NCBI GenBank assembly: GCA_003153505.1
Contig: PLZA01000025.1
Span: 4,513 to 68,512 of the forward strand
Length of the DNA: 64,000 nucleotides
From: Candidatus Dormiibacterota bacterium
GTDB taxonomy: Bacteria; Chloroflexota; Dormibacteria; Aeolococcales; Aeolococcaceae
Reading direction: 5' to 3'
Below the pieces are notes generated by a model. That model searched no databases, was not told the DNA's origin, and saw only the letters and a list, made by a program, of their open reading frames with translations. A program made the position numbers and the translations under genes. Shown piece by piece: positions 19,763-43,140 of this stretch (position 1 is its first letter; each line of letters starts with the position of its first letter).

Positions 19763-21361
19763 TCAGGCACCGGCGCCGGGTGAGCCGAGCATCTCGTACC
19801 CGCGAAGCGTCAGGAACTCGGCGAGCCGGTCGCTGTAGACGAGCTCGTTGAACAGCGTTCGGGCCTGATCGAGGCAACCCTCCGCGGCAGATGCGGCGGC
19901 GATCTCAGTTCGGAATGCCGCGGCTTCCTCGTCCTCGATTCGCGCCATCAGCGCACGCGTCACCGTGCGCCCATCCGGCACCGCCGCACCTCGTTGCAAC
20001 CACTGCCAGAGCTGTGATCGGCAGATCTCCGCGGTTGCGACGTCCTCCATGAGGTTGAACACACCGGCCGCACCGTTGCCGCCGAACCAGGACGTGAGAT
20101 AGCGCAGGGTGACGCTGACGTTGTTGCGCACACCCGTCTCGGTCACCTCGTGCCCGGCCGAGTCGAGGTCGAGCAGGTCGCGCGAGGTCACTGCAACGTC
20201 CAGTCGAAGGCGGTCCAGTTGGTTGGCCTTGTCCCCGAGGACGGCGTCGAACTCTTCGCGCGCGGTCCCGACGAGGTCGGGGTGCGCCACCCACGTGCCG
20301 TCGAACCCGTCCCCCGCCTCACGGCGTTTGTCGGACCGCACCCCCGCGAGCGCGGCGGTCGTCGCGTCGGCATCGCGGCGGTTGGGTATCAGCGCTGCCA
20401 TGCCGCCGATGGCGTGCGCCCCGCGGCGATGGCAGGTGCGGACCAGCAGTTCGGTATATGCGCGCATGAAGGGCACGGTCATCGTGAGTCGCTTCCTGTC
20501 GGGGAGCACGCGGCGGTCCTGGTTCGCGAAGGTCTTCACCGCGCTGAACAGGTAGTCCCACCTGCCCGCATTGAGGCCGGCTGAGTGATCGCGCAGCTCG
20601 TAGAGAATCTCATCCATCTCGAGTACCGCCGGCATGGTCTCGATGAGCACGGTGGCGCGGATCGAACCCCTACCGAGACCGAGTTGGTCTTCGGTGAACA
20701 CGAAGACGTCGTTCCAGAGTCGCGCCTCCAAGTGGCTCTGCAGCTTGGGCAGATAGAGGTACGGATTGGTGCCCTGATCCCGCAGGTGCCTGGCGTTGTG
20801 GAATGCGAAGAGGCCGAAGTCGAACATGCTGGCTGAGGCAGGTGCGCCATCGATGAGGAAATGCCGCTCCGTGAGATGCCACCCGCGGGGACGCACCAGC
20901 AAGGTGGCGACCTCCTCTCGCAACCGGTACTCGCGACCGTCGGGGTTGACATAAGAGATGGTTCGGTTCACCGCATCGCGGAGATTGGCCTGCCCCTCGA
21001 CCATGTTCTCCCACGTCGGCGCGTTCGAATCCTCGAAGTCGGCCATGTACCCGGTGGCACCAGAATTGAGCGCGTTGATCAGCATCTTGCGATCTGTTGG
21101 CCCGGTGATCTCGACACGCCGGTCGGTGAGGTCGAGTGGCGCCGCCGCCACGGTCCACGAGCCAGCGCGCACGCCGGCAGTGTCGGAAAGGAAATCGAGC
21201 GAGTCCCCTGCGTCGATCCCCTGCTGCACCACGGCGCGGCGGGCAAGCAGCTGTTCCCGGACCGGGTTGAACCGGGTATGGAGCGAGGCGACGAATTGCT
21301 GCGCCGGAATGGTGAGCACCGATGCACTCGAACGCGTCGCGGATCCCTTGATCGTGATCAC
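19763..21361 (-). CDS. aceB: malate synthase A
   Basis: 532 aa. RVEITGPTDRKMLINALNSGATGYMADFEDSNAPTWENMVEGQANL... matches AceB throughout. Confidence 0.9.
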   Translation of the reverse strand: MITIKGSATRSSASVLTIPAQQFVASLHTRFNPVREQLLARRAVVQQGIDAGDSLDFLSDTAGVRAGSWTVAAAPLDLTDRRVEITGPTDRKMLINALNSGATGYMADFEDSNAPTWENMVEGQANLRDAVNRTISYVNPDGREYRLREEVATLLVRPRGWHLTERHFLIDGAPASASMFDFGLFAFHNARHLRDQGTNPYLYLPKLQSHLEARLWNDVFVFTEDQLGLGRGSIRATVLIETMPAVLEMDEILYELRDHSAGLNAGRWDYLFSAVKTFANQDRRVLPDRKRLTMTVPFMRAYTELLVRTCHRRGAHAIGGMAALIPNRRDADATTAALAGVRSDKRREAGDGFDGTWVAHPDLVGTAREEFDAVLGDKANQLDRLRLDVAVTSRDLLDLDSAGHEVTETGVRNNVSVTLRYLTSWFGGNGAAGVFNLMEDVATAEICRSQLWQWLQRGAAVPDGRTVTRALMARIEDEEAAAFRTEIAAASAAEGCLDQARTLFNELVYSDRLAEFLTLRGYEMLGSPGAGA

Positions 21362-21457
21362 CGCATACCTCTCAGCCCAAGCCTGGCGATATAGTAGACT
21401 TGTTACGCCCTACGAACGTAGTGACTGCCGACGGCCGCTCGCCGGCGCGCTGACAAG

Positions 21458-22327
21458 GTGGATGCGATGACGGACCATGGGGAGGCAATCGCTGAACGCC
21501 TCGCACAACTTGGGTTCACGCAATACGAGGCGCGCACGTACCTCGGACTGTTGCAGACGGACACCGCCACGGGCTACTCGATAGCCAACGAGACCGGTGT
21601 CCCCCAGCCCAAGGTCTATGAGACGCTGCGGCGCCTCGTGGAGCGCGGTGCGGCGGCGCGCACTGGCGAGAAGCCCGCCCGCTACCGGGCCGTCCCTCCG
21701 GATGCGCTCCTCAAGGGCATCGAAAAGGACTTCGCCGCGCGGGTTGCGGCGGCTCGCCACGACCTCGAGTCACTCCCGCGCCGCGAGACCCCTGCGCAGC
21801 TCCTGCCGGTCTCTCGGGTGGAGTCATTCGCTCCGGCGCTGGAGGCAGCCTCAGCGGCGATCGCTGCGGCGCGAACTCGCGTCTATCTCAGCGGGAACCA
21901 CGACGAGCTGTCCGGGTTGCGGGCTGCGGTCGGCCAGGCCGCGACGGCCGGCGTCGAGTTCGTGGTGGTGCACTTCGGCAAGCTCCCCTTCCCATCTCCG
22001 CCCGGCCAGGTCATTCGTCACGCGAGCACCGACGGAGCGATCTACCGATCGCGGCACGCGCGCCATCTGGCCGTTGCGGTCGACTCCCGGTGGGCGTTGT
22101 GGGGCGTCGCTCGCGACGGCACGCAGTGGGACATCCTCACCAGCGAGTCAGCGCTCCTCGCGGGTCTCGTCAAGGCATATATCCGCCACGACATGTTCGT
22201 CCAGCGAATCTTCGCGGACCTGCCGGCGGAGCTCGAGCGGCGGTACGGCTCTGGACTCCTCGAGCTCGATCACCTGTCCTGGTCGGGCGAGCGCAGCGGT
22301 GCCGATCATGCTGAGGAGGCCGGCTGA
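21458..22327 (+). CDS. TrmB-family transcriptional regulator
   Basis: N-terminal HTH LAQLGFTQYEARTYLGLLQTDTATGYSIANETGVPQPKVYETLRRLVERG is typical of TrmB. The C-terminal domain is TrmB-like. Confidence 0.7.
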   Translation: MDAMTDHGEAIAERLAQLGFTQYEARTYLGLLQTDTATGYSIANETGVPQPKVYETLRRLVERGAAARTGEKPARYRAVPPDALLKGIEKDFAARVAAARHDLESLPRRETPAQLLPVSRVESFAPALEAASAAIAAARTRVYLSGNHDELSGLRAAVGQAATAGVEFVVVHFGKLPFPSPPGQVIRHASTDGAIYRSRHARHLAVAVDSRWALWGVARDGTQWDILTSESALLAGLVKAYIRHDMFVQRIFADLPAELERRYGSGLLELDHLSWSGERSGADHAEEAG

Positions 22328-22384
22328 GGTGCCGGCTATGATCGGTGCGCTCCCGCCGTGGTCGCCGGCAACCACGGCCGAGTG

Positions 22385-23257
22385 ATGCGCACGATCGATC
22401 TGCATTGCTATCCGGGCACGCCCGAATGGATTGCCTCGCAAGGGCCATTCGTCGAGGCGCTTGCGGCCTACTGGAAGCGAGACTGGGTGGGCAAGGCCGA
22501 GGCGGAGGTGACCGCCGACTTCCGGCAAGCGGGCGTGAAAGCCGTGCTCGTGGCATTCGATATCGAGTCGGTGACCGGGTCGCCTCCATGCACCAACGAG
22601 TACGTCGCCGGCATGCGCGATCGCAACCGCGACACAATCCTGCAGGCGTGGGGAGCGGTTGACCCACTGAAGGGGAGCGCGGCGATCGCCGAGGCCGAGC
22701 GTGCGGTCAACGAGTTCCACGTGCTCGGCTTCCACTTCCACCCGATCATGGGTCACTACTCGGTCGACGACCCGGCGCTGCGTCCGCTGTTTGATGTCAT
22801 CGCCGGTCTCGGCGTGCCCGTGATGATCGATGTCGGCACCACCGGAATGGGCGCGGGACTCCCGGGCGGCCTCGGATCGAAGCTGCGTCACGCGCACCCC
22901 ATGTCGATCGACGATCTCGCCGGCAATTTTCCGAATCTGACCATCGTCGCCGCACATCCCGGGTGGCCGTGGGTTGAGGAGATGACCGCTGTGGCGCTGC
23001 ACAAGGGCAACGTCTTCTGGGAGGTCTCGGGATGGGCGCCGAAGTACCTGCCCGACGGCCTCAAGCGGGACATCCGCGGCCGGTTGCGGGACAAGGTGAT
23101 GTTCGGGAGCGACTACCCGAGCATGCCCTACGAGCGCATCTTCCGCGAGTGGGACGAGCTCGGCTACTCCGATGATGTGATGTCCGGGCTCTTTCACGCC
23201 AACGCCGAACGCATCCTCGGGCTCGACCTGGCGACAGCCGCGGAAAACGCCGGGTGA
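22385..23257 (+). CDS. amidohydrolase-2 (ACMSD/decarboxylase-like TIM-barrel metal hydrolase) family protein
   Basis: MRTIDLHCYPGTPEW..., ...HFHPIMG..., ...AAHPGWPW..., ...FGSDYPS... match PF04909 landmarks (HxH, His, Asp). Confidence 0.7.
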   Translation: MRTIDLHCYPGTPEWIASQGPFVEALAAYWKRDWVGKAEAEVTADFRQAGVKAVLVAFDIESVTGSPPCTNEYVAGMRDRNRDTILQAWGAVDPLKGSAAIAEAERAVNEFHVLGFHFHPIMGHYSVDDPALRPLFDVIAGLGVPVMIDVGTTGMGAGLPGGLGSKLRHAHPMSIDDLAGNFPNLTIVAAHPGWPWVEEMTAVALHKGNVFWEVSGWAPKYLPDGLKRDIRGRLRDKVMFGSDYPSMPYERIFREWDELGYSDDVMSGLFHANAERILGLDLATAAENAG

Positions 23258-24024
23258 GCGTCGACGCAGCACGCCCGGTCGCACTGGTCACCGGCGCTGC
23301 ACGAGGAATTGGCCGCAGCACAGCCATCGCCTGCGCTCGCAATGGCTTCGACGTCGCGCTCAACTTCAGCCGCAGCCGCGCCGCAACCGAGGCGGTGGCT
23401 GCAGACGTCGCCGCGCTCGGCGCCCGAACGCTGCTCTTTCAGGCTGATGTCGCGGACGAGGCGCTCGTGCGGGAGATGCTGCAGGCGGTCGGCAGCGAAT
23501 TCGGCCGCCTCGATGCGCTCGTCAACAACGCCGGCACGACGGTGTCCACCCCGCCGAGCGACCTCGACGGTCTGCGCATGGAGGACTGGGATCGCGTCTT
23601 CGCCGTCAACGTCCGAGGCACGTTCCAGGTGACGAGAGCCGCGGTCCCCTTGTTGCGCGAGTCGCCTCGCGGAGCCGTCGTCAACCTTGCAAGCATCGTG
23701 GGATTGCGGCCCGGACCGCAGCCGTTCCCGTACGCGGCGAGCAAAGCCGCCATCGTCAACCTCACGCGCACGCTGGCTGGTGCGCTCGGTCCCGCCATCC
23801 GAGTCAACGCCGTCGCGCCGGGATGGATGGTCGGCGACTGGATGGAGGAGGCTTTGGGGGACAACTACGATCGCCTGATGGACCGGCGCGCCAAGCTGAC
23901 GCCGCTACGACGCTGCGTCACCCCCGACGAGGTTGCGGAGACGATTCTCAGCCTCCTCGTCAGCAATCCGTTCGTCACCGGTGAGACCGTCGTCATCGAC
24001 GGCGGTTTCAGCGCGACGACCTAG
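23254..24024 (+). CDS. SDR-family oxidoreductase
   Basis: TGAARGIGRSTA (Rossmann motif), NNAG, catalytic YAASKAA. Confidence 0.85.
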   Translation: MSVDAARPVALVTGAARGIGRSTAIACARNGFDVALNFSRSRAATEAVAADVAALGARTLLFQADVADEALVREMLQAVGSEFGRLDALVNNAGTTVSTPPSDLDGLRMEDWDRVFAVNVRGTFQVTRAAVPLLRESPRGAVVNLASIVGLRPGPQPFPYAASKAAIVNLTRTLAGALGPAIRVNAVAPGWMVGDWMEEALGDNYDRLMDRRAKLTPLRRCVTPDEVAETILSLLVSNPFVTGETVVIDGGFSATT

Positions 24025-24032
24025 GCATATCG

Positions 24033-25616
24033 GTGCCTCCATTGGACGGCGTCGTCCCGTTTCCACCCGAGTTCGCCGCGCGCTACCGAGCCGCCGGCTA
24101 CTGGGAGGACCGCACGCTTGACGACGTCTTCAGCGAACTCTTCGCGGAACACGCGGAACGCGTCGCGCTCCTCCATGCTGGTGACACGATCACGTACCGG
24201 CAGCTCGCCGAGCGCAGGGCAACACTGGCCGCGCGGCTGCACGATATGGGACTGCGCCGCAACGACCGCGTGGTCATGCACCTCCCGAACGCGCCGGAAT
24301 TCCTCTATCTCTACTTCGCGCTCCAGATGCTCGGCGTGATCCCAGTTCTGGCGCTCGCGCCCCACCGGCGGCTCGAGATCGATCATTTCGTCAAGCTGAC
24401 CGATGCCGTTGCGTACTTCGGGACCGACCCTGAGCTGGGCGAGGTCATCCGCGCTGCAAACCCTGGCCTGCGCCACGTGATCCTGATCGACCAGCTGGCG
24501 CCCGGACCCGGAGGCGCCCAGCCGCCGCACGTCGAGATCGATCCGACCGACCCCTGCTGTCTCCTGCTCTCCGGCGGCACCACAGGCATCCCCAAGCTGA
24601 TCCCGCGCACGCACAACGACTATGTGTACAACTCGCGCGCAGCTGCAGCGGTGTATTACATCGATCGCGAGAGCTGCCAGCTGGCAGTGGCGCCGCTCGC
24701 CCACAACATGCCGCTCGCCTGTCCCGGCGTCCAGGGCTTCCTGATGCACGGGGCCCGGGTGGTGCTCAGCGAGGGGACGCGTGCCACCGAGATCCTGCCG
24801 CTTGTCGAGCGCCACCGGATCACGCACATCGCCGCCGTGCCCGCGCTGTACATCCGCTGGCTCGCGGATCCAGACGCCGGCGACCACGACATGTCCTCGG
24901 TACAGCTCCTCCAGTCAGGCGGCCAGCGTCTGCAGCCCGAGTTGCGCAGGCAGATGGCAGCGTTCTTTCCCAACGCCTTCGTCCAGGAGAACTTCGGCAT
25001 GAGTGAGGGCACGCTGTTCTTCGTGCGCAAGGACCAGCCGGAGGAGGCCCGCATGGAGACGGTCGGCTTACCCGTTTCAGCCGACGACGAGGTGCGGCTC
25101 TGCGATGAGTCGGGCGCCGAGGTTCCGGATGGCGAGGTCGGCGAGTTAACGGTGCGTGGGCCGTACACGCTCCGCGGCTACTACCGCGCACCCGAGTACA
25201 ACGAGCGCCAGTTCACACCCGACGGCTTCTATCGCTCCGGCGACCTGATGCGCCGGCATCCCTCGGGCGCCTACCTGGTCGAAGGACGCATCAAGGATCT
25301 CATCAACCGAGGTGGCGAGAAGATCAGCGCCGAGGAGATCGAGAATCTCATCCTCATGCATCCGTCGGTGCGCAACATCGCGTGCGTTCCCTTCCCGGAT
25401 CCGGTCCTCGGCGAGCGGATGTGCGCGTGCGTCATCCTGCGGCCCGGCGCACAGCTCACCCTGGATGCACTCGGGCAGTTCCTCTTCGACCTCGGCATCG
25501 CAAAGTTCAAGCTCCCTGAGCGACTCGAGATCCTCGACGACTTTCCGCTCTCGCCGTTCGGCAAGACCTCCAAGAAGGCGCTTACCGAAAACCTGCGCGA
25601 TCGGAGCGCGGTATGA
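24033..25616 (+). CDS. aryl-acid adenylating enzyme of the 2,3-dihydroxybenzoate-AMP ligase (DhbE/EntE/MbtA) clade; candidate aryl-AMP/aryl-CoA ligase
   Basis: Co-linear with Bacillus DhbE, which I have from memory: N-terminus FPPEFAARYRAAGYWED vs WPDELAETYRKNGCW; A3 LLSGGTTGIPKLIPRTHNDYVY vs [27 protein letters not shown], GEL(T)VRGPYTLRGYY, YRSGDL, and IKDLINRGGEKISAEEIEN vs KDQINRGGEKVAAEEVEN. Confidence 0.8.
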   Translation: MPPLDGVVPFPPEFAARYRAAGYWEDRTLDDVFSELFAEHAERVALLHAGDTITYRQLAERRATLAARLHDMGLRRNDRVVMHLPNAPEFLYLYFALQMLGVIPVLALAPHRRLEIDHFVKLTDAVAYFGTDPELGEVIRAANPGLRHVILIDQLAPGPGGAQPPHVEIDPTDPCCLLLSGGTTGIPKLIPRTHNDYVYNSRAAAAVYYIDRESCQLAVAPLAHNMPLACPGVQGFLMHGARVVLSEGTRATEILPLVERHRITHIAAVPALYIRWLADPDAGDHDMSSVQLLQSGGQRLQPELRRQMAAFFPNAFVQENFGMSEGTLFFVRKDQPEEARMETVGLPVSADDEVRLCDESGAEVPDGEVGELTVRGPYTLRGYYRAPEYNERQFTPDGFYRSGDLMRRHPSGAYLVEGRIKDLINRGGEKISAEEIENLILMHPSVRNIACVPFPDPVLGERMCACVILRPGAQLTLDALGQFLFDLGIAKFKLPERLEILDDFPLSPFGKTSKKALTENLRDRSAV

Positions 25617-26596
25617 CGGTCATCGACTCGTATGCGCACGTGTTCCCGATGCGCCTCATCGAAGCACTCGAGGACGTCAGCCCGACAGCGGAGCTGCGCG
25701 CGCTCCGCAACCAGAGCTCGTATCTGTATGACGACACGCGCCGGATCGCGTACATGGACGAGCACGGGTTCGACGTCCAGGTTCTGGTGCTCGCGCGACC
25801 GCCGGTATGGCTCGGCATGGAGCGTGCTGACATCCACCGGCTCACCCGCGTCGCGAACGACAGCATCGCCGAATTCGCGGGCCGTCACCCGCAGCGCTTC
25901 CTCGGAGTCGGCGTGATTCCGGTCGTCGACGACGTCATGATGGAGGAGTTCGAGCGACTCCATACCGAGCTCGGGCTCCGTGGTGTTCTGATCTTCTCGA
26001 ACATCGAGGGCAGGCCGCTCGACGACCCATCGATGTGGCCGCTGTACGAGCGCGCCGCGGCGACCGGCGTGCCGATCTGGATACATCCTCAGCATGCGAA
26101 CTTCTATCCGTGGATCGGCAAGGACGTGCTTGATCGTACCCTCGCCTGGCCATTCGATACATCACTGGCGATGGCGCGGCTGGTCTACGGCGGCGTCTTC
26201 GAGAAGTACCCCGACATCAAGTTCGTGACCCACCACATGGGCGGCATGATCCCGTACTTCGCGTCGCGCATCGACGCGTTCTCGCGGAGCACCGCAAAGG
26301 TCTACGCGCGCCTCGGGATTGGTGAGAGCAGCGGCCCGCAGCTCACCGGGCCGGCGATCGACCACTTCCGCCGCTTCTACAACGACTCCGTCAGCAACGG
26401 TTCCGCCGAGTCGCTGAGCCTCGCACTGCGTTTCTTCGGTTCCGACCACATCATGTTCGGGACGGACTTTCCCTTCGGGCCGGAGGATGGGTCGTGGGCG
26501 GTCGAGGAGCTGCGCAACGTGCGCTCGATCGACGTATCCGATGACGACCGCGAGCGGATCCTGCACGGCAACCTGGAGCACCTGCTCGGTCTCTAG
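25613..26596 (+). CDS. amidohydrolase-2 family protein (ACMSD-type decarboxylase/hydratase-like)
   Basis: MTVIDSYAHVFP..., ...IWIHP..., ...VTHHMGG..., ...MFGTDFPFG are PF04909 metal-ligand landmarks. It overlaps the ligase stop (ATGA). Confidence 0.75.
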   Translation: MTVIDSYAHVFPMRLIEALEDVSPTAELRALRNQSSYLYDDTRRIAYMDEHGFDVQVLVLARPPVWLGMERADIHRLTRVANDSIAEFAGRHPQRFLGVGVIPVVDDVMMEEFERLHTELGLRGVLIFSNIEGRPLDDPSMWPLYERAAATGVPIWIHPQHANFYPWIGKDVLDRTLAWPFDTSLAMARLVYGGVFEKYPDIKFVTHHMGGMIPYFASRIDAFSRSTAKVYARLGIGESSGPQLTGPAIDHFRRFYNDSVSNGSAESLSLALRFFGSDHIMFGTDFPFGPEDGSWAVEELRNVRSIDVSDDDRERILHGNLEHLLGL

Positions 26597-26617
26597 CCGC
26601 GACCGGCTGATCAGCGT

Positions 26618-27391
26618 CTATGGAGCGCGGTCTGCGGTGACCTCGTTCGGTGCGGTGGCCCCGAGAAAGATCTCGCGCATGTCCGGCTTCGCCAGCACCT
26701 CCTTCGCATCCGCCGACATGACCACCTCTCCGCGTACCAGCATGTATGCCCAGTCAGAGATGCCCAGCGCCGCCACCGCTTTCTGCTCGACGAGCAGCAC
26801 CGCCTTGCCGAGATCGCCGAGCGCTCGGACCTGGGTCTCGAGGACGGCTTTCGAGAGCTCCGGCGACAGGCCTGCCGTCGGCTCATCGAGCACGAGCACC
26901 GACGGGTCGAGCATGAGCACCCGGGCGATTGCGGTCATCTTCCGCTCGCCGCCGCTGAGGGTCTCGACATAGCGATTGAGCCGCGGCCGGAGTTGCGGGA
27001 AGACGGTGAGCGCGCGCTCCATGCGCTCGGCGCGCTGGTGCTTGTTGAAGAGGTACCCGCCCATGTCGAGGTTCTCGCGCACGCGCAATCCGTCGAAGAC
27101 GTCGTCGACCTGGGGCACGTAGCCGATGCCCAACCGCGCGAGCTTCTCGAGCGGCAGCCCCGTCACATCAGTGCCGTTCAACTCGACCCGTCCGGACTCC
27201 ACGCGGGCAATGCCGAGGATCGCCTTGAGCAGCGTGCTCTTGCCCGCACCGTTCGGTCCGACCACTGCCACCACCTTGCCTTTGGCGACGTCCATGTCAA
27301 GGTTGGTCACGATCGGCGGCCCGCCATAGCCGGCGGTGATCCCACGAATCGCCAGTGCCAGAAACGGTTTCTGAACGTCAGCCGATGACAT
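26618..27391 (-). CDS. branched-chain-amino-acid-type ABC transporter ATP-binding protein (LivF-like)
   Basis: Walker A GPNGAGKST, signature LSGGERKM, Walker B LVLDEPTAGL. Confidence 0.85.
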   Translation of the reverse strand: MSSADVQKPFLALAIRGITAGYGGPPIVTNLDMDVAKGKVVAVVGPNGAGKSTLLKAILGIARVESGRVELNGTDVTGLPLEKLARLGIGYVPQVDDVFDGLRVRENLDMGGYLFNKHQRAERMERALTVFPQLRPRLNRYVETLSGGERKMTAIARVLMLDPSVLVLDEPTAGLSPELSKAVLETQVRALGDLGKAVLLVEQKAVAALGISDWAYMLVRGEVVMSADAKEVLAKPDMREIFLGATAPNEVTADRAP

Positions 27392-28153
27392 ACGCGTCCT
27401 GCACCTCGCGGCTCAGGCGGAGCTCAGACATCCGACCCTCGGACAGCACCTTTCCCTGCGCCATCACCACGACCTTGCCGCAGAGCTTGTCCACGGTCTC
27501 GAGCTCGTGTTCGACGAGCAGCAGCGAGAGACCTCCATCGGCAAGCTTGAGGAGGACGTCCTCGAGATGGCGCGACAGGCTCGGGCTCAACCCGGCCATC
27601 GGCTCGTCGAGCAGCAACAGCTTGGGTTGCATCATCAACGCACGCATGATCTCGACGGCGCGTTTCTGGCCACCGCTGAGGGTACCCGCGAGGTCGTTCG
27701 CCTTCTGCGCCATGGAGAACGTCTCGAGCATCGCCTGCGCCTCGCTGACGAGCTCCTTCTCCTGGGAGCGCCAGGCGCGTCTGCCACCGACGACCCCGGC
27801 GGCGCGCTCCCCGCGCTGGCGAGGAGCTGCGACGAGGAGGTTCTCCAGCGTCGTCAGGTTCCCGAACACACGCGCCATCTGGAACGTGCGCACCAGGCCG
27901 ATCCGGGCACGTGCATGCATCGCCATTCCGGTGATGTCCACGCCGTCGAAGCGGATGCGTCCGCCACTCGGTTGCACGAATCCACCGATCATCGCAAGCG
28001 CGGTCGACTTGCCCGCACCGTTCGGTCCGATCAGCCCGGTGATGCTCCCGCGTTCCACGGTGAATGAGATGCCGTCGACGGCACGGACGCCGCCGTAGTG
28101 CTTTTCCAGATGGTCGACTTCGAGGAGCGGCCCGGTCGCAGCGAGTGCCACCG
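27378..28153 (-). CDS. branched-chain-amino-acid-type ABC transporter ATP-binding protein (LivG-like)
   Basis: Walker A GPNGAGKST, signature LSGGQKRAVEI, Walker B LLLDEPMAGL. Start inferred just after the upstream permease stop. Confidence 0.8.
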
Positions 28154-28155
28154 GG

Positions 28156-29124
28156 TCAGCCCGGTAACTTCGACGGTGACTCGCCGCGGTAGCGTGGCCG
28201 CCGCTCTTTGAGCACACCCTGCGGACGGAACCAGATGAAGGCGATCGTCGCAGCGCCCAGGATGATCCAGCCGAAGTCCTCACTGAGTCCGGGGCTCGAG
28301 GCGATCTGCGGCAGGAACTGGACTCCCTGGAGCAGGAGCACGGCGATGATCAGCGTGCCCAGACTGACGCCGAGGTCGCTGCCTCTGCCGCCGACGATGA
28401 TGCAGCTGAGAAATGCGAGGGTCTCGATGTATGCCCACGCCGAGGGCGACCATCCACCGATGAACCCGGCGAGCAGCGCCCCGCTCAGTCCGCCGAACGC
28501 GCCGCCGACCGCCTGGACAACGAGGCGAAGGCGCACGACATCCTTGCCCGCCGCCGACGCGGCGGTGTCGTCATCGCGCATCGCCCGGAGCGTCCGGCCC
28601 ATCGGGCCGGTGGTGAAACGACGCAGCACCACGAAGCCGATCAGGCAGCACACCGCGACCAATGCGACGTACGCCCAGCGTGCCGTGTCCGGATCGAGGT
28701 TGGAGAATGGATTGGGAATGAGTGCAAGGCCCGCGGTGCCGTTGAAGAGCCCGATGTCCGCGCTCACAATCGTCGTCACCATCAGGGACACGACCAGCAT
28801 CGCCACGCCCTGGTAGTCCTGACGCAGCCGTTTGAGCCCCGTGAGCCCAATGAGCGTGCCGACCAAAGCGCCGGCTGCCGCACCGACCAGCAGCGCCAGT
28901 GGAAAGGGCAACGTGAAGCCGCCGATGTACGTCTGAAAACCGCCGTTGCCCGACGACGGACCGAGGGTCACGATCGCGTACGCGTATGCGCCTGCGGCGA
29001 CCACCACGATGTACGCGAGATTGGCGATTCCCGCGACGCCGAACTCGAGGTTGAGCCCCCAGACCGCGAGCAGGTCGGTGCCGAGGTACACGAGCATGAC
29101 GACCAGGTAGTACTCCCAGGCCAT
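28156..29124 (-). CDS. ABC transporter permease (LivM-like)
   Basis: MAWEYYLVVMLVYLGTDLLAVWGLNLEFGVAGIANLAYIV... Start inferred at MAWEYY, directly after the TAG of the upstream LivH-like gene. The listed 560-aa ORF includes a non-coding-like Arg/Gly N-terminal extension. Confidence 0.8.
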   Translation of the reverse strand: MAWEYYLVVMLVYLGTDLLAVWGLNLEFGVAGIANLAYIVVVAAGAYAYAIVTLGPSSGNGGFQTYIGGFTLPFPLALLVGAAAGALVGTLIGLTGLKRLRQDYQGVAMLVVSLMVTTIVSADIGLFNGTAGLALIPNPFSNLDPDTARWAYVALVAVCCLIGFVVLRRFTTGPMGRTLRAMRDDDTAASAAGKDVVRLRLVVQAVGGAFGGLSGALLAGFIGGWSPSAWAYIETLAFLSCIIVGGRGSDLGVSLGTLIIAVLLLQGVQFLPQIASSPGLSEDFGWIILGAATIAFIWFRPQGVLKERRPRYRGESPSKLPG

Positions 29125-29126
29125 GC

Positions 29127-30017
29127 CTACCCCTCCATCAGCCGGCGGCTGGACCACGCGGCGCCGAAGAGGCCACGCGGCCGGACGAGCAGCACGATGA
29201 TGAGGATCACGAAGGCCACCACGTCCTTGTAGTTCGGGTTGCTCACCGCGGCCGCCACCTCGCTGGAGATGCCGATGATCATCCCGCCCAGCATCGCGCC
29301 ATACGGCTGACCGATGCCGCCGAGCACCGCTGCCGCGATCATCGGAATGAGGAACAGGGCGCCGAGCGAGAAGTCGAAGCTGACGGTGGTGATCGCCAGC
29401 GCAACGCCGGCCGCACCGCACAGGCATCCTGAGATGAACCATGCGATGTCGCTGATGCGGCTCGTCGCGATGCCGCAGCTGCGCGCGAGAGTCCGGTTCG
29501 AGGATGTTGCGCGCATCGCCTTGCCGAGCGTCGTCCGGGTCAGAAGCAAATGCAGCGCCAGCATCAGGATCGCGGTGAGCACGATGATCGTGACCTGCCC
29601 GAAGGAGAGCGTCAGATCCAGGAAGTGGAAGGTTTGGCCGCTCTGCTCCCCATAGCTCTGCGACGACGGTCCGGCGATCGCCACGATCACGTACTGCAGG
29701 ATGGTTCCCGCAGACACAGTGACGATGATCATGGCGATCGCCCGGGTGCCACGCCGCACCAGCGGTGCCAGGAGAATGCGGTGGTAGATCACCGAAACGG
29801 CCCCTACTGCGACGGCGCTGATGGCGAGTGCTGCCCACGCATTGATGCCGTGGTTGATCAGCACCAGCCCGATGTACGCGGAGAGCGTCATCAGCGCGCC
29901 ATAGGTGATGTTGAGGATGTTGCTGATGCCGAACTGCACCGAGAAGCCGACCGCGCCCAGAGCGATCACTGCACCGGTGGCGATGCCGAAACCGATGGCC
30001 TCAATGATCAGCTGCAA
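29127..30017 (-). CDS. ABC transporter permease (LivH-like)
   Basis: MQLIIEAIGFGIATGAVIALGAVGFSVQFGISNILNITYGALMTLSAY... 296 aa. Confidence 0.85.
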   Translation of the reverse strand: MQLIIEAIGFGIATGAVIALGAVGFSVQFGISNILNITYGALMTLSAYIGLVLINHGINAWAALAISAVAVGAVSVIYHRILLAPLVRRGTRAIAMIIVTVSAGTILQYVIVAIAGPSSQSYGEQSGQTFHFLDLTLSFGQVTIIVLTAILMLALHLLLTRTTLGKAMRATSSNRTLARSCGIATSRISDIAWFISGCLCGAAGVALAITTVSFDFSLGALFLIPMIAAAVLGGIGQPYGAMLGGMIIGISSEVAAAVSNPNYKDVVAFVILIIVLLVRPRGLFGAAWSSRRLMEG

Positions 30018-30065
30018 CGGTCATCCCCACTGGGCGATTGTATGAATGAGGCACTGCCTCCGCCG

Positions 30066-31367
30066 TCACAGCAGGCCGAGAACCTGCGTGCCGGAGATGC
30101 TGCCCACGCGGCTGGCGCTGCCGTCGGGGTTGAAGATGTTTGCGGCGAACTCGCCCGCCGAGTTGTGGTACTGGTTGAAGACCACAGGGCCGATGACACC
30201 GACGTACTGGATCTGCTTGCCGGCCTTGAGCGCCGCCACACCGTCGGCGAAGTTGCTCACCACCACGGCTCCGGGCTTCGGAGAGATGATCTTGGTCACG
30301 AACTGGTTGTAGTACGAGCCGACGGTCGACTTGGCCATGACCATGGCAAGCGCCATGATGTTGATCCCGTCGTACGCGGACGCCGGCGGGCCCACGGCGC
30401 TGAGCACGTCGGCGATCGCGCTCGTCCGGGAGTCGTTCTGGAGCGCGGTCTTGTACGTGTTGAAGGCCGCAGTCGTCTGGCTGAACGAGGATCCGACAAG
30501 GTAAACGTCCTGGGTGACGTAGGTGACGCCTACGACCCGCTTCAGGGCACCAAAGAAGTCAGGGGTCAACGAGTCGGTGGCGGTCACCATCGGCGGGATC
30601 GAGCCGTTGTTGAGCTGCTTGTACTCGGACATGAAGGTCGCCGTGGTCTGCGGATCAGCGGACCAGATCAGCGCATCCGGGTGGGCGTTGATGACCCGGG
30701 CCACTTCGCTCGAGTACGAGGCCGCGTCCGCCGGAATTGTCAGCTGCAGCCCGAGGCTGCCGCCGAGCTTCGGCATCGCGGATGTCAGACCAGGAAGGTT
30801 CCCCTCGGAGCCGATCCCGTTCTGGAAGACAACCGCGACGTTCTTGAATCCCTTCTGCACCGCCCACACGGCAAACGCCGCGCCATTGGCGTCGTCGGAC
30901 GGAGTGAGCCGCCAGTAGTACGGGTAGCTGTTCTTCGTGAATGCCACGAGCCCATTCGTCGTGACGATCGGGATCTTGGCGTCGTTGACGAGCGGCACGG
31001 TGGTCGCGGCCGTATTGCTCTCGAGGCCGACCGCTATATCCAGGTTCGTCGTGGTCGCGATTGCGCGGGTGACGTTGGGGACCGCGTCCGCCGGGTCGCC
31101 GGTATCGTCGATCGCCGAGCAGCTGATCGTCTTGCCCAAGATGCCGCCGGCCTTGTTGATCAAATCCGTGGCCGCGAAGCAGGGGGCCGACAGGAGCTTG
31201 CCGAATTGGGCGGCCGGCCCGGTGAACGGCGCGATCACGCCCGCGGTGATGTTGCCCGACTGTGTCGGGACTGACGACGAGGAGGACGGGCTGCTGCTCC
31301 CGCAGGCAGCGACCAGCGCGGTCGCTCCCACCAGAGCGGCCACTCGCCAGGTTCTCTGGGAGCCCAT
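30066..31367 (-). CDS. ABC transporter substrate-binding lipoprotein, Peripla_BP_6 (LivK/LivJ-like) family
   Basis: Lipoprotein signal MGSQRTWRVAALVGATALVAACGSSS and a Ser-rich linker. The 433-aa body has the LivK-like fold. Confidence 0.8.
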   Translation of the reverse strand: MGSQRTWRVAALVGATALVAACGSSSPSSSSSVPTQSGNITAGVIAPFTGPAAQFGKLLSAPCFAATDLINKAGGILGKTISCSAIDDTGDPADAVPNVTRAIATTTNLDIAVGLESNTAATTVPLVNDAKIPIVTTNGLVAFTKNSYPYYWRLTPSDDANGAAFAVWAVQKGFKNVAVVFQNGIGSEGNLPGLTSAMPKLGGSLGLQLTIPADAASYSSEVARVINAHPDALIWSADPQTTATFMSEYKQLNNGSIPPMVTATDSLTPDFFGALKRVVGVTYVTQDVYLVGSSFSQTTAAFNTYKTALQNDSRTSAIADVLSAVGPPASAYDGINIMALAMVMAKSTVGSYYNQFVTKIISPKPGAVVVSNFADGVAALKAGKQIQYVGVIGPVVFNQYHNSAGEFAANIFNPDGSASRVGSISGTQVLGLL

Positions 31368-31535
31368 GGAAAAACCTCCTTGTGAAGGTCACGCCGTTCC
31401 GGCGGTGTCGCGTCCGCACCGTCCACCCTACCGTGGTGAGCAGTACCATAATGGACGCAGCAGACAAGTGCAAGGCCCGCCGGCCTGTGCGTGCCGCGAT
31501 GCGGCAAGCGCCTCGAAACGGGCGAAGGAGACGCG

Positions 31536-33185
31536 ATGATCGACGACGGTTTCGAGATCAAATTCCTCCCCGGCACGTCTCCCCAGGACGCGGGGTGTCC
31601 ACCGCTGTCACCACGCACGGAGCGCGTTGACGGCATGATCATCGAGTACGACACGGCGGTTCGCATGCGCGACGGCATCGAGATCTACGCGGATGTCTTC
31701 CGGCCGGACGGCCCGGAGCCCGTGCCACCGATCATCGGCTGGGGACCGTATGGCAAGCACGGCGCGGTCAAGTACGACATCTTCCCCAAACACGGGGTCG
31801 ACCCCGCATGGACCTCGAAGTACGCCGGGTTCGAGGCACCCGACCCCCTGTATTGGACCCGCCACGGTTACGCCGTGATCAACGTGGATCCTCGCGGCAT
31901 GTGGAACTCTCAGGGTGACGCCACCTTCTACTCATCGCAGGAGGCACGTGACGTTTACGACTTCATCGAGTGGGCGGGAACGCAGCCGTGGAGCAACGGC
32001 AGGGTCGGCATGTCCGGCGTGTCCTACCTCGCGATCACGCAGTGGCGGGCGGCGGCCGATCGCCCCCCGCATCTCGCAGCGATCAACCCATGGGAAGGGG
32101 TCAGCGATCGCTATCGAGACATGTCGTATCACGGTGGCATTCCGGAGGACAGTTTCGGACCGATGTGGCGGTCGAAGCGCGTCGCCTTCTCCAACGGCAT
32201 GGTCGAGGACACGGTCGCCATGCACGCGGATCACCCGCTCTTCGATGCGTACTGGGCGAGCAAGACGCCCGACCTGTCAAAGGTTGAGATCCCCACGTTC
32301 GTGGTTGCCAGCTGGTCGGACCAGGGATTGCACAACCGCGGCACCATCGAGGGCTTCAAGCACATCAGCTCGAAGGACAAATGGCTTCTCGTGCACGGCC
32401 GGAAGAAGTGGCAGTTCTACTACCGTCCTGACAACGTCGAGTTGCTCCGCCAGTTCTTCGACAAGTTCCTCCGCGGTGTGGAGGACAGCGGAGTCGATTC
32501 GTGGCCCCGTGTGCGACTCGAGACGCGCGAGCGCTTCTACGTCGGCGACTATCGCGACGAGGCCGGCTGGCCGCTGGCGCAGACGCAGGCGCGGGCGCTG
32601 TACCTCGAGCCCGAGTCGAAAACACTGGTCGCCGACGTGCCGCCCAAGGAAGGTACCGTGCGATATGCCGGCGCCACCGAGCGGGTCGAATTCACGCATC
32701 GATTCGGGGAGCGAACCGACCTGATCGGCCCGATGAAACTGCACCTCTGGGTCGAGGCTGAGGGCTCCAGCGACATGGACCTGTTCGTCGCAATCCAAAA
32801 GCTCGACGAGCAGGGTGAGATCGTGCCCTTCTCGTTCCTCAACTCGCTCGAGGATGGCCCGGTCGCGCTTGGCTGGCTGCGCGCGTCGCACCGCGAGCTG
32901 GACCCGGACCTTTCCACCGACCTGCAGCCGTGGCATCCCCACACGCGCGAGCAGTTGCTCGAGCCTGGGCAGATCGTGCCGGTCGACATCGAGATATGGC
33001 CATCCGGAACGCGCTTCGAGGCCGGTGAGCAGCTGCGCATGATCGTCCAGGGCAGCGACATCTACATGTATCCGCCGGGCATCGTGCGCATGGGTCATTC
33101 GAAGACGCGCAACGCGGGGAGCCACGTGATCCACACAGGCGGCCGCTACGACTCGCACCTGCTCGTGCCGGTCATCCCCGCCTGA
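31536..33185 (+). CDS. CocE/NonD-family alpha/beta hydrolase (X-Pro dipeptidyl-peptidase S15-like)
   Basis: YDTAVRMRDGIEIYADVFRP..., GWGPYGKHG, nucleophile elbow GMSGVSYLA, C-terminal beta-sandwich. Start inferred at MIDDGF. Confidence 0.8.
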   Translation: MIDDGFEIKFLPGTSPQDAGCPPLSPRTERVDGMIIEYDTAVRMRDGIEIYADVFRPDGPEPVPPIIGWGPYGKHGAVKYDIFPKHGVDPAWTSKYAGFEAPDPLYWTRHGYAVINVDPRGMWNSQGDATFYSSQEARDVYDFIEWAGTQPWSNGRVGMSGVSYLAITQWRAAADRPPHLAAINPWEGVSDRYRDMSYHGGIPEDSFGPMWRSKRVAFSNGMVEDTVAMHADHPLFDAYWASKTPDLSKVEIPTFVVASWSDQGLHNRGTIEGFKHISSKDKWLLVHGRKKWQFYYRPDNVELLRQFFDKFLRGVEDSGVDSWPRVRLETRERFYVGDYRDEAGWPLAQTQARALYLEPESKTLVADVPPKEGTVRYAGATERVEFTHRFGERTDLIGPMKLHLWVEAEGSSDMDLFVAIQKLDEQGEIVPFSFLNSLEDGPVALGWLRASHRELDPDLSTDLQPWHPHTREQLLEPGQIVPVDIEIWPSGTRFEAGEQLRMIVQGSDIYMYPPGIVRMGHSKTRNAGSHVIHTGGRYDSHLLVPVIPA

Positions 33186-33191
33186 CATCGT

Positions 33192-34157
33192 GTGGCGGGC
33201 AGCGGTGTGAACGTGCTGCTGCTGCTCGCCTTGCCTGAGCCCGTCCGCGCCGCGTATCTCGGAAGGCTGCGGCGAGCATTTCCCGAGGTGACCGTCAACC
33301 TCGCGGAGCATCACGAGAAGGTCGGTCCCTACATCGCCGATGCGGATGTGCTGATCACCTTCGGCGCTCACATGAGTGACCACGTGCTCGAGGAAGGTGT
33401 CAACCTCCGCTGGATCCAGGCGCTCGGCACCGGCGTGGACGGCATCGCCGATCGACCTGCCCTTCGTGCCGGTGTGCTCGTCACCAACCTGCGCGGGCTG
33501 CATGGACCCGCAGTGTCCGAATCCGTGCTCGCGTCGATGCTCGCGCTGGCGCGCGATCTGCCGCGCTCGCTCGGCAACCAGTGGCGCGGGCAGTGGCAGC
33601 GATTCCCGGTGCAGCTGCTCAAGGGCAAGACTGCGGGCATCCTGGGGGTCGGTGTCATTGCCGAAGAGCTCGCGCCAAAATGCGCTGCGCTGGGGATGCG
33701 CGTCGTCGGTGTGTCGTCAGCTCAGCGAATCGTCCCCGGCTTCGAATCCATCTGGGGGCTCGACCGGCTCAACCAGGTTGCCGGTGAGTCGGACTTCCTG
33801 GTGCTGCTGACCCCCTACTCGGCTGCGACGCACGGCATTGTCAACGCTCGGGTGATCGCGGCGATGCGGCCGTCCAGCTTTCTGATCAATGTGGCGAGAG
33901 GCGGGATCGTCGACGAGCCCGCGTTGATCACCGCGTTGGAGCAGCACAGCATCGCCGGTGCCGCGCTCGATGTCTTCAGCGATGAGCCCCTGCCCGCAGA
34001 TCACCCACTCTGGAGGCTCGACAATGTCATCCTCACGCCGCACATCGCAGGGTTTCACGTCGGCTACATCGACGACGCGCTGCCGATCGTGGAGGAGAAC
34101 TTGCGTCGATTCATCGCCGGGGATGTCAGCACCATGCGCAACGTGGTGAGCACCTGA
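33192..34157 (+). CDS. D-isomer-specific 2-hydroxyacid dehydrogenase (NAD-binding)
   Basis: GKTAGILGVGVIAEELAPKCAALGMRV (GxGxxG Rossmann); catalytic region ...INVARGGIVDEPAL...AALDVFSDEPLP...LDNVILTPHIAGF. Confidence 0.85.
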   Translation: MAGSGVNVLLLLALPEPVRAAYLGRLRRAFPEVTVNLAEHHEKVGPYIADADVLITFGAHMSDHVLEEGVNLRWIQALGTGVDGIADRPALRAGVLVTNLRGLHGPAVSESVLASMLALARDLPRSLGNQWRGQWQRFPVQLLKGKTAGILGVGVIAEELAPKCAALGMRVVGVSSAQRIVPGFESIWGLDRLNQVAGESDFLVLLTPYSAATHGIVNARVIAAMRPSSFLINVARGGIVDEPALITALEQHSIAGAALDVFSDEPLPADHPLWRLDNVILTPHIAGFHVGYIDDALPIVEENLRRFIAGDVSTMRNVVST

Positions 34158-37036: not shown

Positions 37037-37286
37037 CCCCGAGTCGCGTGTGCGACCGCGCCGGCGAGCGCCCGGGTGCTGGGTCGAGCGATCTGGACGC
37101 CTGGGTCGGACCGCTGTAACAAGAACGCAACCGCAGGCGGTCCAGATCGGACCGCTCTGGCAAGGCCCTCACGGCTCGCTCCCCTGGAAGTCACAAAACC
37201 GATCACGGGTGATCACAAGGCCTTGAGACGAGCGGGTTTCGCATACGGTCGTGGCGTCTTCGTCTATCAGGTTTGAGAGATCCTTT

Positions 37287-41942: not shown

Positions 41943-42019
41943 CTCGAGGCGCGGTCCCGAGTCCCGAGATCGGGCGGTCGCAGGCGCCGGTGCGCGTGAG
42001 AGTAGGCTCGTGGGCAGCA

Positions 42020-43120: not shown

Positions 43121-43140
43121 GCATCATCGACACGACGTCG

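Follow-up and report, generated by a model that had tools for sequence, protein, structure and literature searches.

A siderophore-type adenylating enzyme in a conserved and uncharacterised catabolic gene module of Dormibacterota and other bacteria

What is the role of a siderophore-type adenylating enzyme whose gene lies among those of hydrolases, a dehydrogenase and an importer? The question is raised by a stretch of 64,000 nt (hereafter the window; G+C content ~67%) from Candidatus Dormiibacterota bacterium (GCA_003153505.1, contig PLZA01000025.1, forward strand, positions 4,513–68,512); all coordinates given here refer to this window. Positions 21467–26596 of its (+) strand constitute a single operon that encodes a TrmB-family regulator, a first Amidohydro_2 protein (AH_A), a FabG-like short-chain dehydrogenase/reductase (SDR), the adenylating enzyme or ligase (LIG) and a second Amidohydro_2 protein (AH_B). 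The siderophore-type ligase, the FabG-like SDR and the novel Amidohydro_2 enzyme AH_A, together called the trio (SDR-LIG-AH_A), are a conserved, widespread and uncharacterised catabolic module. The chances appear about even that the operon is a TrmB-controlled unit for the coenzyme A (CoA)-dependent catabolism of a salicylate-like aromatic acid.

The domain map was obtained from Pfam and NCBIfam scans, together with gene calls on identical contigs. The genes of the operon are tightly packed: AH_A and SDR overlap by a GTGA, SDR and LIG are separated by 8 nt, and AH_B is translationally coupled to LIG through an ATGA overlap at 25613–25616. An initial annotation, made from the sequence of the window, had already noted this overlap between the ligase and an amidohydrolase gene, the presence of a second amidohydrolase upstream (AH_A) and the adjoining SDR and Liv-type importer genes (Peripla_BP_6, LivFGMH). 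The overlap is real and the Pfam domains are as it described. The open reading frame (ORF) with which its region opened (21458/21467–22327), left unmentioned there, encodes a TrmB-family helix-turn-helix (HTH) regulator (E=1e-21) and not an amidohydrolase.

The ligase and its acyl-binding pocket

Residues 4–523 of LIG align with residues 2–531 of DhbE (1md9; E=2e-125, 422 bits), which confirms that the two proteins are co-linear over their full length, as had been supposed. The best solved relative is the salicylate-AMP ligase 5wm2 (E=1e-141, 476 bits), presumably CahJ. Scores to 5wm2, DhbE, PchD, MbtA and EntE lie between 476 and 318 bits, compared to at most 171 bits for 4CL, FadD and benzoate-CoA ligase. 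Since LIG is co-linear with DhbE and the other ANL enzymes do not exceed 171 bits, it is a true member of the aryl-acid adenylating clade. It scores below the cutoffs of both equivalog models for 2,3-dihydroxybenzoate-AMP ligase (470.4 vs 723.55 bits for TIGR02275; 437 vs 783 bits for NF008192).

Pocket residues were read via the DhbE (1md9) alignment, and 85 ligases from related loci were aligned. H224, N225 and K511, which correspond to DhbE His234, Asn235 and the catalytic Lys519, are found in 85 of 85. The complete LIG pocket consists of H224, N225, M226, C230, Q298, N320, G322, L328, F329, F330 and K511. In this alignment Asn225 and Cys230 are the salicylate-type residues; the latter stands where DhbE has Ser240, and the salicylate-AMP ligases 5wm2 and PchD (7tyb) also have Cys there. 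Two positions, Gln298 (DhbE Ala308) and Asn320 (DhbE Val329), are non-canonical and near-invariant in homologues. Among the other changes from DhbE to the LIG family are Val337 to Leu328, Tyr236 to Met or Leu, Asn338 to Phe or Met, and Tyr339 to Phe. The 2,3-dihydroxybenzoate (DHB)-type set (Ser240, Ala308, Val329, Val337) is thus not matched by LIG, which has Cys230, Gln298, Asn320 and Leu328. Of the 85 aligned ligases, 75 conform to the pattern H N M/L C G Q N G L F/M F K, and four more deviate from it at the third position only. The inspection of these residues, which the initial annotation had recommended, suggests an ortho-hydroxy (or amino) acid that carries extra polar groups at the distal side of the ring.

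Could LIG still be an aryl-capping enzyme of a siderophore or other natural product that acts in trans with a carrier protein or a non-ribosomal peptide synthetase (NRPS) encoded elsewhere in the genome? With the siderophore and natural-product enzymes DhbE (1md9), EntE, PchD (7tyb), MbtA and 5wm2 it has in common the clade, the AMP-binding core, the His-Asn pair and the Lys, and with the salicylate-AMP ligases also the Cys at the position of DhbE Ser240. The whole-length likeness to DhbE, EntE, PchD and 5wm2 would suit such a role, and only 64 kb of the genome are visible. However, LIG differs from these enzymes by A308Q, V329N, Y236M/L, N338F/M and Y339F, by its sub-cutoff equivalog score and by a catabolic context devoid of aryl carrier, NRPS and isochorismate genes. 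Pfam scans of the larger ORFs of the window brought up regulators, transporters and metabolic genes of other kinds, but no PP-binding, condensation, thioesterase, isochorismatase or isochorismate synthase domain, a six-frame search of the window yielded no phosphopantetheine-attachment motif, and no carrier protein, NRPS, isochorismate synthase or isochorismatase is recurrent across 56 related loci with sufficient flanking sequence (see below). The partners that are always adjacent are instead an SDR and a hydrolase, and the gene is linked to importers (Liv here, Bug-type in Betaproteobacteria), thiolase and crotonases. A siderophore role in trans is therefore very improbable. The earlier view of the locus as a catabolic island devoid of carrier protein, NRPS and isochorismatase is upheld, as against that of a siderophore locus, by the transporter and hydrolase neighbours, and by beta-oxidation genes and aryl-CoA or aromatic hydroxylases in relatives.

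A catabolic enzyme of the EntE clade is not without precedent. SdgA of Streptomyces sp. WA46, a DhbE-like enzyme from the work of Ishiyama et al. in 2004, reportedly makes salicylyl-CoA for catabolism. In the Sdg pathway, salicylate is converted to salicylyl-CoA, then to gentisyl-CoA and finally to gentisate. Like SdgA, LIG is a stand-alone DhbE-like enzyme of a catabolic locus without carrier protein, and the genomic context leads us to propose that it works as a CoA ligase, with free CoA as acceptor, as is said of SdgA. The formation of gentisyl-CoA from salicylyl-CoA is attributed to SdgC in the sections of two reports that deal with this step (PMC13215587, PMC6460240), and delta-type relatives of the operon carry a gene resembling the hydroxylase half of SdgC beside the trio. 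In comparison, neither an SdgC-like salicylyl-CoA 5-hydroxylase nor a gentisate 1,2-dioxygenase is found among the window ORFs scanned, the LIG pocket has Gln298 and Asn320, and the FabG-like SDR and the Amidohydro_2 partners are not known Sdg components. The initial remark that the route is not a textbook pathway is qualified by the Sdg precedent; the trio itself has no assigned function.

Some Dormibacterota (loci L036, L040–L043 and L046; ~6.2–7.9 kb in L041) possess a second, paralogous EntE-clade ligase (~52% identity) whose pocket is DHB-like (Ser, Val) and whose gene is coupled to those of an AH_B copy, an F420-dependent LLM oxidoreductase, a hydrolase of S15-like type and a benzoylformate-decarboxylase-like enzyme.

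A trio of genes shared by several phyla

A scan of species-representative genomes with the retrieval peptides FVQENFGM and DPVLGERM gave 497 relatives of LIG, and the best 80 loci of these 497 were compared by tblastn and by clustering of their flanking ORFs. Neighbourhood counts refer to the 56 "well-flanked" loci with at least 2.5 kb on either side of LIG. The LIG protein itself is identical on many soil and permafrost metagenome contigs, its nearest named relatives being metagenome-assembled genomes (MAGs) of Candidatus Dormibacterota. Since the gene block recurs on many independent metagenome contigs and in the 80 fetched genome loci, it is not a chance arrangement.

The SDR gene is adjacent to LIG in 54 of the 56 loci. 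AH_A (at least 55% identity) accompanies it in 42, and a distant Amidohydro_2 gene occupies the same position in 10 more. The trio occurs in at least 6 phyla, its lineages comprising Dormibacterota, Chloroflexota, delta-type and Binatia MAGs, Beta- and Alphaproteobacteria, Acidobacteria and Actinobacteria. In the genomes among these that belong to Chloroflexota, delta-type and Binatia lineages, Beta- or Alphaproteobacteria or Acidobacteria, and thus not to the Dormibacterota type, AH_A is 63–72%, SDR 60–68% and LIG 55–62% identical. In contrast, AH_B is encoded in 33/37 Dormibacterota-type loci and in none elsewhere among the loci analysed, and both the TrmB regulator (35/37) and the Liv transporter are likewise restricted to this type. 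The conserved unit is thus the trio and not the five-gene block whose co-occurrence was initially to be looked for: SDR-LIG-AH_A is widespread, but AH_B and the Liv transporter are of Dormibacterota type only. Several contigs with near-identical Dormibacterota-type synteny (L008, L045, L048) are labelled Saccharimonadales, Micrarchaeaceae or Micrarchaeia, probably as a result of MAG binning or classification errors.

The genes found beside the trio vary with the lineage. S15-type hydrolases are near it in 33/56 loci. In six delta-type loci, the gene directly upstream matches the N-terminal half of a bifunctional salicylyl-CoA 5-hydroxylase (NF006101, E=3.5e-124), while loci labelled Bordetella and Comamonadaceae carry an FAD aromatic hydroxylase and a Bug-type binding protein. 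Thiolases adjoin the trio in Rhodoferax (L073) and Trebonia (L088), and crotonases or a thiolase also follow it in Verticiella, an Acidobacteriia MAG and Rhodoferax. A molybdenum large subunit of the xanthine-dehydrogenase/CODH family lies beside the trio in 28 loci, its best match being glyceraldehyde dehydrogenase alpha (4.6e-177); several of these loci also have a benzoylformate-decarboxylase-like thiamine diphosphate (TPP) enzyme. At the Trebonia locus the three-subunit molybdenum enzyme is complete and comes after AH_A and SDR.

The molybdenum genes bring up an N-heteroaromatic substrate. A hydroxylated pyridine- or quinoline-carboxylate would be converted to its CoA ester, the SDR would reduce a pyridone and the amidohydrolases would open a lactam or imide, with the molybdenum hydroxylase adding hydroxyls in many lineages; the isonicotinate-citrazyl-CoA route of Mycobacterium INA1 is said to proceed in a similar fashion. 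In favour of such a route are the large subunit in 28 loci, the three-subunit set of Trebonia and the two polar residues deep in the pocket, Gln298 and Asn320, which could make contact with a ring N-H or C=O; EntE-clade enzymes also activate 3-hydroxypicolinate and quinoxaline/quinaldate acids. However, the window yielded no molybdenum enzyme when searched by tblastn with the large subunit of related loci. The best match of that subunit is of aldehyde type, which together with the benzoylformate-decarboxylase-like gene suggests a sequence from arylglyoxylate via aldehyde to acid. Moreover, the salicylyl-CoA hydroxylase-like gene and the ben/cat/gallate surroundings described below indicate carbocyclic aromatics, and no PF04909 member is, to our knowledge, known to hydrolyse amides. 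An N-heteroaromatic route is therefore an unlikely alternative to a carbocyclic one.

A protein search of annotated plasmids located AH_A (64% identical) in two cultured bacteria, Acidovorax sp. DW039 and Sphaerotilus sulfidivorans D-507. Their LysR-controlled plasmid operon encodes a Bug binding protein, SDR, LIG, AH_A, a carboxylesterase at a place analogous to that of the S15 hydrolase in the window, then a 3-oxoadipyl-CoA thiolase and finally two crotonases, one of them PaaF-like. In NCBIfam the thiolase exceeds the PcaF cutoffs (670 vs 597 bits, 683 vs 605). The Acidovorax copy occupies about 110.7–119.7 kb of NZ_AP029020.1, and that of Sphaerotilus is on NZ_CP035710.1. In Acidovorax the operon is flanked on one side by benABC/catA and a muconate cycloisomerase gene, and on the other by a gallate dioxygenase gene. 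With genes for a bona fide 3-oxoadipyl-CoA thiolase and for two PaaF/PaaG-like crotonases after the trio, the arrangement resembles the lower Paa/beta-ketoadipate pathway (PaaF, PaaG, PaaH, PaaJ or PcaF), although neither the PaaABCDE epoxidase nor PaaZ is present, and the window has only a distant thiolase, 43% identical to that of the Acidovorax operon, and no crotonase.

The trio can also be read without any aromatic substrate. The EntE-type pocket, which recognises a hydroxyl in beta position to the carboxyl, would have been reused for an alicyclic or aliphatic 3-hydroxy acid set free from its lactone or ester form; the SDR would serve as a 3-hydroxyacyl-CoA dehydrogenase, and thiolase or AH_A would cleave the resulting 3-oxoacyl-CoA. 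The FabG-like nature of the SDR and the recurrent esterase (S15 or carboxylesterase) agree with this, as does the absence of any oxygenase from the window and from the betaproteobacterial operon; the combination of SDR, two PaaF/PaaG-like crotonases and 3-oxoadipyl-CoA thiolase is reminiscent of a Paa-like lower pathway. On the other hand, the His-Asn pair and the Cys of salicylate-AMP ligases are retained, aromatic hydroxylases accompany the trio in several lineages, and all characterised EntE-clade enzymes that we know of use aromatic or heteroaromatic acids. A non-aromatic substrate thus seems quite improbable.

More distant AH_A-like genes (38–39% identity range) occur in similar company. 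In Haloferax volcanii (pHV4) such a gene lies beside paaABCDE, a crotonase gene and PaaI, on a Streptomyces plasmid it adjoins SDR and F420-dependent oxidoreductase genes, and in Variovorax SRS16 it is clustered with an SDR gene and one for a PaaK-family CoA ligase. The Variovorax cluster, in which a non-homologous CoA ligase takes the place of LIG in an otherwise unchanged architecture, provides the strongest contextual argument that LIG would make a CoA thioester and that SDR and AH_A-type enzymes would act on that thioester.

Chemistry of the partner enzymes

The sole sequence-level relative of AH_A with a solved structure is the uncharacterised protein BB4693 (3irs, 1.5e-17), on which a literature search gave nothing; zero sequence-level matches to characterised decarboxylases were obtained among solved structures. 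In an AlphaFold2 (AF2) model with a mean predicted local distance difference test (pLDDT) value of 86.5, the best fold match is again 3irs (template modelling score, TM, 0.78; 24% identity), followed by LigW, LigJ, gamma-resorcylate decarboxylase (gamma-RSD) and IDCase (TM ~0.68, 13–20% identity). Residues D5-x-H7, H117/H119, H169/H171, H191, E213 and D243 are invariant across 26 homologues, the putative metal-set residues D5-x-H7, H191 and D243 being placed by alignment and secondary structure alone. Equally invariant is a Gly-rich loop, DVGTTGMGAGxPGGxG (residues 149–164, ~22829–22876), which AF2 leaves disordered at very low confidence. Possible roles of this loop are those of a mobile lid or of an element that binds phosphate or CoA; we know of no equivalent in characterised Amidohydro_2 decarboxylases.

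AH_B is closer to enzymes of known function. Its best solved match is the uncharacterised Lactobacillus protein 3ij6 (1e-33), and IDCase, gamma-RSD and LigW match it at ~1e-29. Of its motifs IDSYAHV, IHPQH, THHMGG and GTDFPF, the last three align with metal and catalytic residues of IDCase and gamma-RSD, while strand 1 reads D5-x-Y7-x-H9, a Tyr replacing the first metal-binding His. A metal site is plausible in both proteins: the invariant residues of AH_A and the motifs of AH_B, apart from this Tyr, suggest that the His/Asp set is not missing. Both share the PF04909 TIM barrel with the ACMSD, gamma-RSD, LigW and IDCase decarboxylases and the LigJ hydratase, and AH_B in addition their HPxH, HxGG and GTDxPF motifs. 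However, the likeness of AH_A is at the level of the fold only, so that the decarboxylase label initially considered for the amidohydrolases is weakly justified for AH_B alone, for which we propose the role of a lineage-specific accessory decarboxylase or hydratase.

If both AH_A and AH_B were non-oxidative decarboxylases or hydratases of free hydroxybenzoates (gamma-RSD, LigW or 2,3-DHB type), LIG would activate either the substrate or a side product. The scores of AH_B (~1e-29 to IDCase, gamma-RSD and LigW) and its kept HPxH, HHMGG and GTDxPF motifs speak for this, as does the fact that LigW, LigJ and gamma-RSD come directly after BB4693 as fold matches of AH_A. Yet AH_A, at 13–20% identity and TM ~0.68, has no sequence-level match to these decarboxylases, and AH_B, which has Tyr at the first metal-binding His, accompanies the trio in Dormibacterota-type genomes only. 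Decarboxylation would moreover strip the carboxyl that LIG requires, and the partners elsewhere (thiolase, crotonases, aryl-CoA hydroxylase-like proteins) are all enzymes of CoA esters. Decarboxylation of the free acid is thus unlikely; the context indicates enzymes acting on the CoA thioester, followed by thiolysis.

Amidohydrolases are indeed encountered in CoA-dependent pathways. The portion of PMC4737184 devoted to CouO, an amidohydrolase-superfamily enzyme of the p-hydroxycinnamate pathway of Rhodococcus jostii RHA1, assigns to it the last beta-oxidative cleavage on the CoA ester. ThnN and BamU, encoded in anaerobic naphthoyl- and benzoyl-CoA clusters, are candidate hydrolases for the opening of a 1,3-dioxo acyl-CoA ring (PMC12016498). 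As in the operon described here, an amidohydrolase-superfamily gene is found in these systems with a CoA ligase and a dehydrogenase, and hydrolysis of a beta-oxo acyl-CoA has been shown or proposed; AH_A is likened to them by its genomic association with CoA ligases and Paa genes. The Cou pathway employs a 4-coumarate-type ligase and side-chain shortening, whereas LIG is EntE-type and its substrate would have the carboxyl on the ring.

The best solved relatives of the SDR are FabG 3-oxoacyl-ACP reductases, and its best NCBIfam match is glucose 1-dehydrogenase, just under cutoff. This match, the TrmB regulator and a sugar-type ABC (ATP-binding cassette) system in Trebonia gave rise to a sugar-lactonase reading of AH_A and SDR. 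It was set aside in view of the AH_A-like genes that adjoin paaABCDE/crotonase/PaaI in Haloferax and a PaaK-type ligase in Variovorax.

The CoA-dependent route would then proceed as follows. The substrate would be an aromatic acid with a hydroxy or amino group in ortho position and probably another polar substituent at the distal part of the ring, and the Liv-type ABC system with its lipoprotein would import it; alternatively, an ester or amide of the acid would be imported and cleaved by the adjacent CocE/NonD hydrolase. LIG would adenylate the acid, with free CoA and not a carrier protein as the acceptor. The FabG-like SDR would interconvert keto and hydroxy groups of the thioester, and AH_A may carry out a metal-dependent hydrolytic step on the thioester, cleaving either a C-C bond (ring or beta-keto) or the thioester itself, by analogy with CouO, ThnN and BamU. 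AH_B would be accessory in the Dormibacterota lineage. An open-chain CoA ester could finally pass through beta-oxidation-type enzymes to a thiolase, in a Paa-like lower pathway with 3-oxoadipyl-CoA-type thiolysis.

A more specific and rather unlikely version of this scheme makes the trio an oxygenase-independent ring-breaking route for resorcylic or salicylic-type aryl-CoA. Here, the adjacent esterase would hydrolyse a depside or flavonoid ester, and the acid thus freed, for example a 2,4-di- or 2,4,6-trihydroxybenzoate, would be converted to its CoA thioester. The SDR would reduce the keto tautomer and AH_A would open the ring by metal-assisted retro-Claisen hydrolysis, before crotonases and 3-oxoadipyl-CoA thiolase take over. 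At the level of CoA esters, such a ring opening would parallel the route of phloroglucinol reductase and cyclohydrolase (PMC10470551). Dihydrophloroglucinol cyclohydrolase was considered as a homologue of AH_A and rejected; since it belongs to the 'cyclase' family and not to Amidohydro_2, it is a functional analogue only.

Control, import and surroundings of the operon

The operon is divergent from a malate synthase gene (19763–21361, -), and the region between them contains the palindrome CCCTACGAACGTAGTG, at distances of 44 nt to the start of TrmB and 47 nt to that of malate synthase. No other place in the window qualifies, this being the sole site of the window with at most one mismatch to CACTAC-N4-GTAGTG. 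In ~24 Dormibacterota loci (within L008–L052) the palindrome lies 41–91 nt upstream of the TrmB gene, just 3' of a TAnnnT-like -10 element, and its arms are kept while the 4-nt spacer is variable. This arrangement fits an autoregulation of the operon by the TrmB protein (called as 286 aa on identical contigs) through binding to the palindrome, which may, given the distance of 47 nt, also govern malate synthase. The malate synthase gene is syntenic in the closest relatives only (8 loci); it could connect the operon to acetyl-CoA/glyoxylate handling or be coincidental. A sigma-70 and terminator scan of 21300–31600 gave zero promoters and terminators at chance level, and is uninformative for this organism.

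The genes of a complete Liv/HAAT-type importer, with a Peripla_BP_6 protein, two BPD_transp_2 permeases and two ATPases in one unit (26618–31367, -), converge on the operon. The best PDB matches of the binding protein are 3sg0, 4dqd, 4ey3, 4evq and 4f06 (1e-11 to 1e-5), which rank above LivJ-type amino-acid binders and which we take to be aromatic-acid binders of Rhodopseudomonas and Pseudomonas. The import of an aromatic acid, as initially suggested, is in line with these relatives, but the match is weak (1e-11). Next to the importer lies the gene of a CocE/NonD S15 hydrolase, which is a candidate for the esterase or amidase activity that would free the acid. A shared operator joining transporter and operon in one regulon was considered and dropped, as there is no palindrome at the promoters of the binding-protein and S15 genes. 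The synteny of transporter and S15 genes with the operon survives rearrangement in loci L036–L056.

Table 1. Features of the operon and its surroundings (window coordinates)
Feature	Position	Strand	Basis or remarks
Operator-like palindrome CCCTACGAACGTAGTG	21408–21423		Consensus CACTAC-N4-GTAGTG; malate synthase/TrmB divergent promoter region
TrmB-family HTH regulator, operon gene 1	21467–22327	+	PF01978, E=1e-21; alternative GTG start 21458
AH_A, Amidohydro_2 TIM-barrel metal hydrolase, uncharacterised subfamily	22385–23257	+	PF04909, E=4e-38
SDR, FabG-like short-chain dehydrogenase/reductase	23254–24024	+	adh_short_C2, E=4e-57
LIG, stand-alone EntE/DhbE/MbtA-clade adenylating enzyme	24033–25616	+	AMP-binding + AMP-binding_C
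AH_B, Amidohydro_2 of ACMSD/gamma-RSD/LigW/IDCase-related group	25613–26596	+	PF04909, E=1e-32
LivF-type ABC ATPase	26618–27391	-	ABC_tran; NCBIfam matches UrtE, LivF
LivG-type ABC ATPase	27378–28151	-	ABC_tran; NCBIfam LivG 3e-63; limits from identical-contig gene calls
LivM-type permease	28156–29124	-	BPD_transp_2; limits from identical-contig gene calls
LivH-type permease	29127–30017	-	BPD_transp_2, E=3e-41
Peripla_BP_6 substrate-binding lipoprotein	30066–31367	-	PF13458, E=6e-31; N-terminus ends lipobox-like ...LVAAC
CocE/NonD (peptidase S15) hydrolase, divergent from binding-protein gene	31536–33185	+	Peptidase_S15 + PepX_C; TIGR00976 E=1e-79
D-2-hydroxyacid dehydrogenase	33207–34157	+	2-Hacid_dh_C; best NCBIfam model (D-2-hydroxyacid dehydrogenase) below cutoff
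M24-family metallopeptidase-like protein	34256–35377	+	Peptidase_M24
Thiolase	35384–36547	+	Thiolase_N + Thiolase_C

Of the genes further downstream (Table 1), those for the D-2-hydroxyacid dehydrogenase and the M24 protein are syntenic in close relatives only and their membership of the pathway is uncertain, while the thiolase is a possible final step. Beyond them, 37251–41942 (+) encodes a probable surface protein of 1563 aa that consists of 11 bacterial Ig-like repeats (Big_3_5, E=1e-122); the GC skew is strongly negative here, and antisense ORFs whose third-position GC is high are numerous. It is followed at 41990–43908 (+) by a transaldolase/FSA-family gene adjoining a KduI/IolB-family isomerase gene, possibly of an inositol/uronate pathway unrelated to the operon. 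Three large BTAD + AAA_16/TPR (SARP/AfsR-like) regulators, encoded at 1–1089 (+), 13116–16388 (-) and 47807–50809 (-), are an unusually dense set for 64 kb.

Several observations weigh against the CoA-dependent catabolism of a salicylate-like acid. The dearomatising step is left unexplained, as no oxygenase, crotonase or aryl-CoA hydroxylase is near the operon in the window, and the chemistry of AH_A is a guess because it has no characterised close relative. The resemblance of the binding protein to aromatic-acid binders is weak. Since no palindrome occurs at up to two mismatches in the promoter region of the binding-protein and S15 genes, transporter and S15 hydrolase are linked to the operon by synteny alone. 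In view of the molybdenum hydroxylase beside the trio in 28 loci, a heteroaromatic substrate fits as well as an aromatic one. Finally, the conservation of Asn320 is partly built into the sample, as the loci were retrieved with FVQENFGM and DPVLGERM; the Trebonia ligase, fetched through AH_A independently of these peptides, nevertheless has an identical pocket code.

Established examples of the CoA-dependent catabolism of aromatic compounds are the Box, Paa and Sdg pathways and the anaerobic benzoyl-CoA route. The module described here is a variant of this strategy and not a categorically new system, the reported activity of SdgA being a precedent for a catabolic EntE-clade ligase. About 500 species-level genomes from at least 6 phyla, including Dormibacterota, encode a relative of LIG. 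Because the operon is present in the cultured Acidovorax sp. DW039 and Sphaerotilus sulfidivorans D-507, the question of its substrate and chemistry is directly testable. The chemistry could perhaps then be assigned to amidohydrolase-superfamily proteins in aryl-CoA clusters such as ThnN and BamU, and oxygenase-free ring opening, if true, would be the first function for a family that possibly includes these two candidates. Dormibacterota are abundant in peat and permafrost soils and are known here from MAGs only. Identification of the substrate would show the recruitment of the EntE clade from biosynthesis to catabolism, and would add a carbon-turnover route for plant and lichen phenolics in peat and permafrost soils.

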